Of a stretch of DNA of 64,000 nucleotides, positions 15,434-17,379 are shown piece after piece. A program made the position numbers and the translations under genes. How positions within the stretch are numbered: the first letter of the stretch is position 1; every line of letters begins with the position of its first letter. The notes below the pieces were generated by a model that saw only the letters and a list, made by a program, of their open reading frames with translations, made no database searches and was not told the origin of the DNA. Where the stretch lies: the NCBI GenBank assembly GCA_036280745.1, contig DASUQC010000026.1, forward strand, positions 209 through 64,208, given 5' to 3'. The stretch comes from Solirubrobacterales bacterium (lineage in GTDB: Bacteria; Actinomycetota; Thermoleophilia; Solirubrobacterales; 70-9).

Positions 15434-16099
15434 TCAGTACGGCGGCAGGTCGTCGTACCAGACGCCGAGCACCTTGAAGGCGCGCCAGAAGCGCTGCTTC
15501 GCGCCCTCCTCGTCGAGGGAGGCGTCGATGTCCGGGACGTAGAGCGCGTCGATCGTCGGGGTGAAGGCCTGGACCTCGCCCTCGCGCTGCTCGACCGGGC
15601 GGGAGAGGGGGACCTGGAGGCTGTTGAGGATGCGCAGGGCGGGCTCGCCCATGACGACGACGATCTTCGGCTGCACGATCGCCATCTCCTCGACCAGGCG
15701 GCCGACGCACTCGCCCGCCGCCAGGTCGGGCTCGGCGATCGGGCACTTGACGCAGAGCGTCCCGTAGACGACGAGCGGATCGATCCCCAGCCGCTTGAAG
15801 CTTTTCATCAGCGCGTTGCCGGCGCGGCCGTAGAAGGCGACGCCCTCCTCGATCTCCGCCGCCATCGGCGCCTGCTTGAGCATGAAGATGTCGGCCTGCG
15901 GGTGGCCGGAGCCGAGCACCGGCATCAGCTTGCCGCGCGGGCAGTGGGGGCACTCCTGGATCTCGCGGCTCATCTGGTTGAGCTCGCGGATCGCCCGCTC
16001 CAGGTACTTCTCGCGGATCTCGTCGTCGGTACCTCGGATCGGCATCGCCGACTTCTTTGACGAGGCGGGCACGGCTCCTCTAGCGCCGCGCCCCTGCAT
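15434..16099 (-). CDS. Uracil-DNA glycosylase superfamily protein (family 4/5-like)
   Basis: The layout is CPHCPRG...VLGSGHPQADIFMLKQAP...FYGRAGNAL...VYGTLCVKCP. The start is set at the ATG at 16097-16099, which overlaps the upstream stop (TGATG), indicating translational coupling. Confidence 0.72.
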   Translation of the reverse strand: MQGRGARGAVPASSKKSAMPIRGTDDEIREKYLERAIRELNQMSREIQECPHCPRGKLMPVLGSGHPQADIFMLKQAPMAAEIEEGVAFYGRAGNALMKSFKRLGIDPLVVYGTLCVKCPIAEPDLAAGECVGRLVEEMAIVQPKIVVVMGEPALRILNSLQVPLSRPVEQREGEVQAFTPTIDALYVPDIDASLDEEGAKQRFWRAFKVLGVWYDDLPPY

Positions 16100-17379
16100 C
16101 AGCTCTTGCTCCCGGATCGGCGTTTTTTCCGGGGCTTGCCGCCGCGCGCCGGTTTCGCGTCCGGGACCCGCCGTTTCGGCGCCTTCGGCCGGCCGGTCGT
16201 CTGCAGCCACTTCAGCGCCTGCACGTAGAAGAGGTTCTTGTGCTTGCGGGTGATGTCGGCGTCGCGCATCGCCTCGAGGAACTCCGCCGGCCCCTCGAAG
16301 TCGTGGATCCGGGTCCGCACGCTGCCGAGGCCCTGGGCGACGTGGCTGTCGGAGCCGGCCCCGGCGACGATCCGGTACTTGCGGGCGAACCGCTCCGCCT
16401 CTTCGTTGAACGCGGTCACCGCCACCCGCGGGTTGAAGACCTCGAGGATGTCGATCTCCTCGACGATGTCGAGCAGGTGCTCGTAATCGGGGACCGAGTG
16501 GAAGCGGTCGAACGGGTGCGGGACGTAGACCAGCCCGCCCTGGTCGCGGATCGCGGCGATCGTCTCCGCCATCGTCAGCCCCTTGGGGATCTTCTCCTCG
16601 ATGAAGAGGCCGATCACCTCGCCCTGCTCGGCGGTCTTCACCTCCTCGGCGACGATCACCTTGATGTCGTCCATCCCGGCGGCGATCTCACGCGCCTCCA
16701 GCGCCCCGGAGACCTCGTTGTGGTCGGTGATCGCGATCGCCCCGAGGCCGCGGTCGCGCGCCGTCTGCAGCAGCACGTCGACCGGGGTGTTGCAGTCGCC
16801 GGAGTGGTCGGTGTGCATGTGCAGGTCGACCTCGATCAGCGGCCGCTCGGCGATCCGGTCCCGCAGCTCCGGGTCGCCCCCCTCCGGGTGGCGGCGGGCC
16901 AGCAGGCGGCGGTAGATCGCTTCGAGCTCGTCGGCGGCGACGGACCAGTCGCGCCCCTCCCCGCCCGGCTCGACCAGCTCGTAGGAGGCCGGGAAGTAGC
17001 CGTCGAGCAGCTGCGCGGTCGCCTCGCTGGTCACGGTGCGGGCGTCGATGCGGCCGAAGAAGATCTCGACCAGCGGCCGCGCGACCTGGGTCGAGAGCAC
17101 CCGCTCCTGCGGCGCGTGGAAGGTGGCGACGTTGAGCGAGAAGGAGTGGCGCAGCGCCGCCGAGGCGACGCTGGGCGCGAACGGCTCGTGGACGTGGACG
17201 ATGTCCGGGTGCGCCCCCCCGAGCAGCCTCTTGACCGGCTCCCCGGTCCCGATCCGCAGCACCTCGTGGCCGCGCCGCTCCAGCTCGGAGCTGACGCGGT
17301 CGACGAACTCGGTGACCGGGTTCTCCACGCCGCGCCGGAAGGGCGCGACGTGGGCGATCGAGAGGCGGTCGGCCGGCAC
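16099..17379 (-). CDS. Fusion protein: GT4/PimA-like N-terminal Rossmann domain joined to a PHP-family metal-dependent phosphoesterase domain
   Basis: The N-terminal ~150 aa read like the acceptor-binding half of a GT-B mannosyltransferase (DIVHVHEPFAPSVASAAL...VATFHAP...GRIDARTVTSEA). From about aa 185 there are PHP motifs (VDLHMHTDHSGD, AITDHNEVSG, YVPHPFD, GSDSH). No GT-B C-terminal domain is present. The C-terminal tail is Lys/Arg-rich. Confidence 0.72.
   Translation of the reverse strand: MPADRLSIAHVAPFRRGVENPVTEFVDRVSSELERRGHEVLRIGTGEPVKRLLGGAHPDIVHVHEPFAPSVASAALRHSFSLNVATFHAPQERVLSTQVARPLVEIFFGRIDARTVTSEATAQLLDGYFPASYELVEPGGEGRDWSVAADELEAIYRRLLARRHPEGGDPELRDRIAERPLIEVDLHMHTDHSGDCNTPVDVLLQTARDRGLGAIAITDHNEVSGALEAREIAAGMDDIKVIVAEEVKTAEQGEVIGLFIEEKIPKGLTMAETIAAIRDQGGLVYVPHPFDRFHSVPDYEHLLDIVEEIDILEVFNPRVAVTAFNEEAERFARKYRIVAGAGSDSHVAQGLGSVRTRIHDFEGPAEFLEAMRDADITRKHKNLFYVQALKWLQTTGRPKAPKRRVPDAKPARGGKPRKKRRSGSKS

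Follow-up and report, generated by a model that had tools for sequence, protein, structure and literature searches.

A PimA-derived glycosyltransferase remnant fused to a PHP phosphoesterase in an inositol-lipid gene cluster of Solirubrobacterales: a candidate phosphatidylinositol phosphate phosphatase

We analysed a stretch of 64,000 nucleotides (nt), called here the window, from a Solirubrobacterales bacterium of the class Thermoleophilia (assembly GCA_036280745.1, contig DASUQC010000026.1, positions 209 to 64,208), and within it a gene whose product of 426 amino acids (aa) joins a remnant of the glycosyltransferase (GT) PimA to a PHP phosphoesterase. In our estimate there is an even chance that this fusion is a membrane-peripheral phosphatidylinositol phosphate (PIP) 3-phosphatase, which would finish the route from Ino1 through PIP synthase to phosphatidylinositol (PI), as its gene context, the fusion itself and its conservation suggest. 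The broader proposal, which we put slightly short of even, is that a PHP metalloenzyme represents the missing PIP 3-phosphatase of Thermoleophilia, non-homologous to the PgpA type of Bacteroides and brought in as a fusion partner of PimA; the latter's module would now be non-catalytic and repeatedly trimmed to an N-terminal core that serves membrane or headgroup contact, or folding. The proposal of a PHP-type PIP phosphatase fused to PimA is a new one and can be tested directly.

Bacterial and archaeal PI is made via PIP. In Conexibacter woesei, a member of the Solirubrobacterales, PI is the main polar lipid (PMC3035278). So far, the phosphatase that completes this route has been identified only in Bacteroides, the enzyme of Bacteroides thetaiotaomicron being the PgpA-like BT_1525 (PMC9246714). 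The actinobacterial enzyme was called "yet unidentified" in 2019 (PMC6506517) and was still "long-sought" in July 2026, when the alpha/beta hydrolase EphE (Rv3670) was proposed on indirect grounds (bioRxiv 10.64898/2026.07.15.738315). The PgpA domain (PF04608) is not present in the fusion described here, and no match to it was found anywhere in the 89.6%-complete genome. A literature search revealed no paper joining a PHP domain to PimA, nor to PIP or phosphatidylglycerophosphate (PGP) phosphatase activity.

A putative phosphatase fused throughout a class to a PI-consuming enzyme, inside an ino1/PIP-synthase operon, is a classical Rosetta-stone clue, and it reduces the question of the missing PIP phosphatase to the simple assay of a single soluble protein. 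The proposal is limited to Thermoleophilia and leaves the mycobacterial case unsolved. The gene and the parts of its product are as follows.

16099..17379, minus strand: whole fusion gene, PimA-N remnant::PHP phosphoesterase, 426 aa (open reading frame (ORF) list and translation)
16960..17379, minus strand: aa 1-140, reduced GT4/PimA-type N-terminal Rossmann domain (Pfam, PDB sequence and fold matches)
16897..16947, minus strand: aa 145-161, C-terminal crossover helix of the GT-B fold, kept and packing back on the N-domain (alignments with PimA and full-length relatives)
16195..16839, minus strand: aa 181-395, PHP + PHP_C phosphoesterase domain (Pfam and NCBIfam matches, ligand columns, Foldseek)
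16102..16194, minus strand: aa 396-426, disordered polybasic tail (composition, low model confidence, clade conservation)

Architecture and ancestry of the fusion protein

The gene starts with a GTG codon at 17379, 12 nt past the ino1 stop codon, and ends with its own stop codon at 16099-16101. The ORF and the motifs drawn from it by the first-pass annotation were all recovered in the translation, and the strand is minus; the plus-strand frame over 16099-17379 is likewise open, yet yields no meaningful protein. The closest database proteins carry only the names "PHP domain-containing protein" or, at JGI, "TrpH." AlphaFold2 modelled the whole protein with a predicted local distance difference test (pLDDT) value of 91.6 and a predicted template modelling score (pTM) of 0.88, so that the N-terminal remnant and the PHP domain are predicted to form a single confident unit. 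No hydrophobic or transmembrane segment was found in the protein. Its tail contains 14 K/R in 31 aa (isoelectric point of about 12), is modelled at a pLDDT of 54-60 and is conserved in the clade of truncated forms.

The N-terminal part matched Pfam Glyco_transf_4 at aa 49-130 (40.9 bits against a cutoff of 28.5), although only over profile positions 64-153 of 170, and its predicted strands lie at aa 7-11, 39-43, 60-64, 82-87, 113-116 and 133-135. The best PDB sequence match of this part was PimA of M. smegmatis (4n9w/2gej; E 6e-5, window residues 45-119 against PimA 79-153), which was also the sole glycosyltransferase among the PDB sequence matches of the protein. Two blocks are common to both: D-I-V-H-V-H-E-P-F-A-P-S in the window and D-V-L-H-I-H-E-P-N-A-P-S in PimA (DxxHxHEPxAPS), and V-A-T-F-H in each. 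Since the two-domain model of the whole protein gave poor template modelling (TM) scores and root mean square deviations (rmsd) for glycosyltransferase matches in Foldseek, aa 1-170 were folded separately (pLDDT 88.2); the top match was then PimA 2gej (E 1.6e-7, TM 0.68, rmsd 2.9 Å, 156 columns), followed by PimA 4n9w and then BshA. The structure check proposed earlier thus returned a GT-B N-domain fold with PimA as its closest relative.

Full-length relatives of the fusion gave the same answer: PimA was the one PDB glycosyltransferase with an E value below 1e-10 (1.6e-14 for the whole GT of L009, 3.3e-16 for P0146), compared with 5e-4 for MshA. In other Actinomycetota families, the best match to the N-terminal remnant was a GT4 gene located about 1-1.5 kb from a PIP-synthase homologue in 18/20 loci and on the same strand in 17/20, while the remaining two loci stop at contig edges; the mycobacterial pgsA1-patA-pimA operon has the same layout. 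By sequence, fold and operon position, the nearest relative of the GT module of the fusion is PimA, and we regard the module as a PimA orthologue.

The assignment of residues ~1-150 to a PimA-like Rossmann half therefore holds for fold and sequence, but the domain is incomplete. The segment linking strand 2 to helix 2 is missing (a loss of about 30 aa by comparison with PimA and of about 50-65 aa by comparison with the full-size relatives), and the Gly-rich loop is gone, PimA G15-G16 being replaced by N-P. No Pfam match to Glycos_transf_1, the nucleotide-sugar-binding C-domain, was found in the window protein, though relatives have one. What it shares with PimA are the N-terminal Rossmann blocks, the position of helix 2, the C-terminal crossover helix (aa 145-160/161, modelled at high pLDDT) and an operon with PIP synthase; unlike PimA, it carries a PHP domain. 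Because the C-domain, EX7E, the R196/K202 equivalents and the Gly-rich loop are lost, as are about 30 aa preceding helix 2, the window protein cannot be a glycosyltransferase, and despite its derivation from PimA it fails the defining features of a GT4 enzyme.

The PHP domain, which had been described as complete, proved to be so in profile, ligands and fold. Pfam PHP (PF02811) matched at aa 185-276 (46.2 bits, cutoff 26.4) and PHP_C (PF13263) at aa 324-373 (46 bits, cutoff 21.3). The metal ligands H187, H189, D195, H220, E246, H288, D344 and H346 (HxH, D, H, E, H, DxH) are all present, and 39-43 of 45 relatives have them too; the sequences that deviate may be metagenome fragments with frameshifts. 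Foldseek placed the PHP part closest to TM0559 (2anu; E 9e-12, target TM 0.73) and RNase AM (1e-10), with BAD_1165 and Cv1693 as further fold matches and EndoQ at 7e-6 only; the PHP domains of PolC/DnaE were also among the sequence/fold matches. The domain is a member of the PHP superfamily with the distorted (beta/alpha)7 barrel. It belongs to no characterised PHP equivalog, as indicated by 40.4 bits for NF047791 (RNase AM/TrpH, RNase RNM; cutoff 375), 37.2 for NF041577 (3',5'-nucleoside bisphosphate phosphatase; cutoff 400) and 72.5 for the CehA/McbA domain model (cutoff 80).

A second PHP/GT4 fusion of 769 aa is encoded in the same genome (contig C37, L077:1456-3765, minus strand), in reversed order: PHP_C lies at aa 161-212 and is followed at aa 412-735 by a GT4 that is complete and looks canonical. 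Its PDB matches are generic (Tll1590, MshA and PimB' at ~1e-13). This fusion suggests that PHP phosphatases have been paired repeatedly with GT4 enzymes in the lineage of the window.

Class-wide linkage to inositol genes and decay of the glycosyltransferase

In a sample of 401 Actinomycetota genomes, 109/401 contained a match, and every Thermoleophilia family was matched. The tallies over 401 and 61 genomes include unpublished genomes (G336, G018, G391, G226, G239, G174, G148, G001; G447, G404); no locus came from these, and only the counts of 109/401, 60/61 and 13/61 include them. Outside the clade of the window, the orthologues mostly match in two pieces about 165 residues apart. The Thermoleophilia orthologues are GT-B::PHP fusions of 580-900 aa, lengths that are approximate given the uncertain ORF starts in high-G+C DNA, and two full-size orthologues passed through Pfam showed Glyco_transf_4, Glycos_transf_1, PHP and PHP_C.

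The survey of distribution and linkage that had been suggested for this gene gave a clear result: the fusion is tied to ino1 and PIP synthase. It adjoins a PIP synthase and/or ino1 homologue in 20/20 fetched Thermoleophilia loci, with both present in 17/20 and a PIP synthase homologue beside the fusion in 19/20. Among the named public loci (n = 80, all from metagenome-assembled genomes of uncultured Solirubrobacterales), ino1 and PIP synthase lie upstream on the same strand in 70/70 loci whose upstream flank spans at least 4 kb. A uracil-DNA glycosylase (UDG) gene is found downstream of the fusion in 18/20 Thermoleophilia loci and in 80/80 named public loci; a PAP2_3 gene occurs in 11/20 fetched loci, one of the 11 about 6 kb downstream and outside the cluster; and the alpha/beta hydrolase is syntenic only within the Solirubrobacterales. 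The elements that stay constant across the class are PIP synthase, ino1, an intact PHP domain and a PimA-derived module. After Ino1 and PIP synthase, the bacterial PI pathway requires just one further enzyme, a PIP phosphatase.

One locus titled "uncultured proteobacterium" (L158, CAVYIC010000012.1) contains a full-length fusion and a complete inositol cluster. Its PHP sequence groups inside the Solirubrobacterales family of the window, and the bin is probably mislabelled or contaminated.

The first-pass annotation had described the protein as half a GT plus PHP. The absence of the C-terminal half and the presence of PHP stand, but this is not the primary design; it is rather a reduced form of a full PimA-like::PHP fusion. 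Alignment with full-length relatives shows that the donor-binding Rossmann domain (~165 aa) was removed by a clean in-frame deletion that spared the crossover helix, leaving 43 aa between the N block and PHP compared with ~200-260 aa in the full forms. In one intermediate, P0123 (489 aa; 63% identity), the C-domain is the only part lost. In the family of the window, 60/61 sampled genomes had a match, and the 426-aa type, at 77-83% identity, was present in 13/61, from 12 genera; the other genomes mostly show the two-piece match of the full form. The 79:1 ratio of truncated to full forms among the named loci is not a frequency, as the ranking favours contiguous (truncated) matches.

The positions of the PimA catalytic and donor-binding residues (G15/G16, R196/K202, EX7E) were mapped by pairwise HMMER alignment and MAFFT alignment and counted in 44 full-length fusions, as given below.

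PimA G15 / G16: most frequent residues H, S / E, P, D
PimA K202: A 15, R 7, P 7, K 4
PimA E274: gap 12, A 8, R 7, E 7
PimA E282: E 23, R 13

The equivalents of G15/G16, K202, E274 and E282 have lost their conservation in the Solirubrobacterales fusions: K202 is replaced by A, and the second Glu (E282) is R in almost all sequences of the order. One other family of the class (f5: L042, L043, P0144, P0146, P0156) keeps the canonical GGEWxxxxxxE (EX7E) and RKG, and PimA was again the sole PDB match of its member P0146 (3.3e-16); with these catalytic motifs kept, the members of this family may be true bifunctional PimA/phosphatase enzymes. In the 44 full fusions, PHP has a mean pairwise identity of 52%, the N core of 35% and the C-domain of 25%. 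A maximum-likelihood tree of the PHP domain (a quick search over 225 columns, with several long branches) separated the fusions from stand-alone PHP proteins with a support of 92. It requires at least two independent losses of the C-domain, the well-supported branches forcing two and parsimony giving five: one in the family of the window and one or more in another clade of the Solirubrobacterales. The order of events was an active PimA::PHP fusion, loss of catalytic residues, loss of the C-domain and trimming of the N-domain, with PHP constrained throughout. No close paralogue of the GT module was found in the window's own genome (89.6% complete), the next GT match having an E value of 3e-6.

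The remnant itself is under purifying selection. At least 119 of the 120 listed metagenome and genome homologues are 411-441 aa long and 83-95% identical to the window protein over 95-100% of its length. In 119 close homologues, aa 49-140 are 86.8% identical to the window protein, with long near-invariant blocks across the truncated clade; the corresponding values are 94% in PHP, 73% in the linker and 75% in aa 1-48. The independent C-domain losses left the N core and the crossover helix in place. Since PHP, the N core and the crossover helix stay conserved through GT decay and C-domain loss, the PHP activity is independent of glycosyl transfer. The series of active GT, dead GT, at least two C-domain losses and a trimmed N-domain is a clear natural case of a glycosyltransferase turning into a pseudoenzyme module, and from it most Solirubrobacterales would be expected to produce PI without PimA-dependent mannosides.

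Neighbouring genes of the cluster

The cluster is encoded on one strand in the order alpha/beta hydrolase, PAP2_3, PIP synthase, ino1, fusion and UDG. The fusion is the fourth gene counting from PAP2_3, and the intergenic gaps are 12-40 nt. The two genes named upstream of the fusion in the first-pass annotation, ino1 and PIP synthase, are both there on the same strand.

15434..16210, minus strand: family-4 uracil-DNA glycosylase (PF03167; TIGR00758 and NF040953 below cutoffs)
17392..18600, minus strand: ino1, myo-inositol-3-phosphate synthase (PF01658, 122 bits; TIGR03450, 559 bits, below its cutoff of 638)
18619..19308, minus strand: CDP-alcohol phosphatidyltransferase, PIP/archaetidylinositol-phosphate (AIP)-synthase-like (PF01066; NF045883 PIPSynth, 132.5 bits; NF040950, 136.5 bits)
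19349..20140, minus strand: PAP2_3 membrane protein, accessory cluster member (PF14378, 132 bits)
20179..21459, minus strand: alpha/beta hydrolase, haloalkane-dehalogenase/epoxide-hydrolase-like, cluster head (Pfam, NCBIfam and PDB matches)

The top-scoring models of the CDP-alcohol transferase are AIP synthase and PIP synthase, and the motif DxxDGxxAR...G...D...D is invariant across 18 orthologues. Two further CDP-alcohol phosphatidyltransferases, one PgsA-like, are encoded elsewhere in the genome (C13:2504-2974 and C18:29380-29844). The listed UDG frame overlaps the last 112 nt of the fusion gene and its homology begins at about aa 53-100, so its true start is probably internal.

The PAP2_3 protein is of the H-H-D type, with the motifs PSMH and NHYWVD and without a clear KxxxxxxRP motif, and matches the Bacteroides PI-dihydroceramide synthase model NF052609 weakly (36.6 bits). 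SMH and HYWVD resemble the catalytic motifs of the inositol-phosphorylceramide (IPC)/sphingomyelin-synthase type, which suggests that PAP2_3 is a transferase. It is a candidate phospho-inositol headgroup transferase using PI from the cluster. Homology of the alpha/beta hydrolase is found from near M151 onward (matches begin at ~aa 154-184); the first ~150 codons of its ORF, rich in Arg and Ser, are probably non-coding, and the HDWG nucleophile elbow is kept.

Proposed function, alternatives and comparison with known systems

In the pathway that we propose, Ino1 would make inositol-3-phosphate (Ins3P), the CDP-alcohol phosphatidyltransferase would join it to CDP-diacylglycerol to give PIP, and the trinuclear metal centre of PHP would hydrolyse the inositol phosphate of PIP to PI, as the third enzyme of a one-operon pathway. 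The phosphatase would have been fused to the PimA orthologue of the class, PimA taking PI as its next substrate; in the Solirubrobacterales, the GT would then have become catalytically dead and its donor-binding C-domain been deleted at least twice. The PimA N core, the crossover helix and the polybasic tail probably set the fold or orientation of PHP at the anionic membrane, or aid headgroup binding. Because the PHP activity outlived the glycosyltransferase, which first died and was then deleted, the GT product cannot be what PHP acts on; PIP, which lies upstream of PimA in the pathway, agrees with this observation. The PIP-phosphatase reading of the first-pass annotation is partly supported, and the two computational checks that could have refuted it, of structure and of linkage, left it standing. 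The analysis established the architecture, the descent from PimA, the order of domain decay, the synteny, the intact PHP ligands and the purifying selection on the remnant; PIP as the substrate, membrane association and a headgroup-binding role of the remnant are what we infer. As for the lipid-headgroup-binding module suggested there, the PimA N core is kept, but the segment beside the membrane/acceptor helix of PimA is lost, and for this reason the N-domain may serve structure or membrane contact and not bind the PI headgroup specifically.

Several observations weigh against the PIP-phosphatase proposal. The loss beside the PimA membrane helix weakens the acceptor-binding argument, the PIP-synthase assignment falls below the NCBIfam equivalog cutoffs (NF045883, NF040950), and UDG comes close to ino1 in the tightness of its synteny. 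The cluster also encodes a PAP2-superfamily protein and an alpha/beta hydrolase, both potential alternative phosphatases. The closest characterised PHP relatives (RNase AM and the pAp phosphatase Cv1693) act on nucleotides or RNA, and our literature search found no PHP-family lipid phosphatase. Stand-alone PHP proteins of other Actinomycetota classes, ~40% identical to the window PHP, have neither PIP synthase nor ino1 nearby, and the PI-making Actinomycetia have no close homologue in the Actinomycetota genome sample; the fusion therefore cannot be a general actinobacterial solution.

The surroundings of these stand-alone PHP genes were also recorded. Some lie directly 3' of a TldD/PmbA pair (L053:6928-11234, also L052, L056, L058 and L064), and in several genomes one lies directly before bacA (undecaprenyl-diphosphatase, BacA/UppP). 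In another Actinomycetota family, PAP2_3 genes are located 3-6 kb from them (L052, L053, L055, L058).

The PHP enzyme could alternatively be a soluble inositol-monophosphate or sugar-phosphate phosphatase, converting Ins3P to free myo-inositol for a PI synthase that takes free inositol or for another inositol-containing product, with the PimA remnant as a structural leftover. We regard this as unlikely. The gene adjoins ino1, which gives the same operon logic, the neighbouring transferase scores below the PIP-synthase equivalog cutoffs, and a second PHP_C+GT4 fusion exists in the genome; furthermore, the GT4-plus-phosphatase pairs SPS/SPP and MshA/MshA2 act on soluble phosphorylated acceptors. 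On the other hand, the transferase scores best with models of AIP/PIP synthases, which use inositol phosphate, the genome already has an IMPase-family gene, and a drain of Ins3P would put the enzyme in competition with PIP synthesis. PHP is fused to the PI-using PimA and not to MshA, pointing to a lipid context, and mycothiol genes were not found over the cutoffs in the window's own genome (best scores of 171.7 against 462.5 for mshA, TIGR03449, and 244.9 against 485.1 for mshC, TIGR03447). With mshA and mshC not found, a role as phosphatase of N-acetylglucosaminyl-inositol phosphate is also unlikely; this candidate (MshA2) was dropped, the GT module being PimA-like and not MshA-like. A nucleic-acid or nucleotide phosphoesterase (RNase AM/TrpH-like, a pAp phosphatase, or EndoQ/PolX-like acting with UDG), whose tail binds RNA or DNA and whose link to inositol is mere gene order, seems quite unlikely to us. 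It would agree with the JGI name "TrpH," with the sequence and fold matches to RNase AM, Cv1693, the PHP domains of PolC/DnaE and EndoQ, with the UDG gene directly downstream and with the basic tail. However, none of the NCBIfam equivalog scores comes near its cutoff, TM0559, an uncharacterised small PHP protein, is the best fold match with EndoQ well behind, and a class-wide PimA fusion whose N core was kept through two trimmings would be hard to explain.

The missing step might also belong to a neighbour, PAP2_3 or the alpha/beta hydrolase being the PIP phosphatase and the fusion acting on another lipid phosphate such as PGP, or mainly in scaffolding or regulation. Lipid phosphatases of the PgpB type belong to the PAP2 superfamily, and an alpha/beta hydrolase, the superfamily proposed in mycobacteria as EphE, heads the cluster. 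The genome has a PgsA-like gene and no PgpA homologue was found in it, so the PGP phosphatase is also without an assigned gene. Nevertheless, the motifs of PAP2_3 suggest a transferase, and PAP2_3 was not found in 9/20 loci, where the fusion still adjoins PIP synthase and/or ino1. Synteny of the hydrolase is confined to the order. EphE has been reported without the Asp nucleophile, whereas the hydrolase of the window keeps it (bioRxiv 10.64898/2026.07.15.738315); a nucleophile-less enzyme of the EphE type is not supported, HDWG being retained. The intact PHP ligands indicate an enzyme and not only a scaffold, and altogether we consider this explanation improbable. That the N-terminal part is a decaying, functionless fossil, in a gene becoming a plain PHP protein or a pseudogene, would accord with the progressive reduction from catalytic residues to C-domain to part of the N-domain. 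We hold it to be very improbable, given the 87% identity of the N core to the window protein within the truncated clade and its near-invariant blocks, the persistence of the truncated form in 12 genera of the family, the separate C-domain losses that both spared the N core and the crossover helix, and the predicted folding of the two domains as one confident unit (pTM 0.88).

Among related systems, the full-length GT4::PHP fusions of other Thermoleophilia (L009:463-2415, 650 aa; P0146, 705 aa) are orthologous to the window protein, with the same operon, N core and basic tail and a PHP identity of 52-80%, and they differ in keeping the whole GT-B fold; these uncharacterised proteins have been named just "PHP domain-containing proteins." The small PHP enzymes TM0559 (2anu), RNase AM/TrpH/YciV (7ug9, 9etk), BAD_1165 (3e0f) and the pAp phosphatase Cv1693 (2yb1) share the barrel, PHP_C and the His/Asp/Glu ligands at 16-22% identity to the window PHP. 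None of them is fused to a GT or encoded in a lipid operon, and the known substrates of this group are nucleotides or RNA.

With respect to function, EphE is a candidate for the same step that was likewise argued from an association with PimA, a predicted complex in that case and a covalent fusion in ours. It belongs to another superfamily. The reaction proposed for the fusion, PIP to PI, is that of BT_1525, whose gene is clustered with those for MIPS and PIP synthase and with a PAP2_3/AUR1-like gene (PMC9246714). The fold of BT_1525 is that of PgpA, unrelated to PHP; if our proposal is right, the fusion would work alike and would represent a non-homologous replacement of the Bacteroides enzyme.

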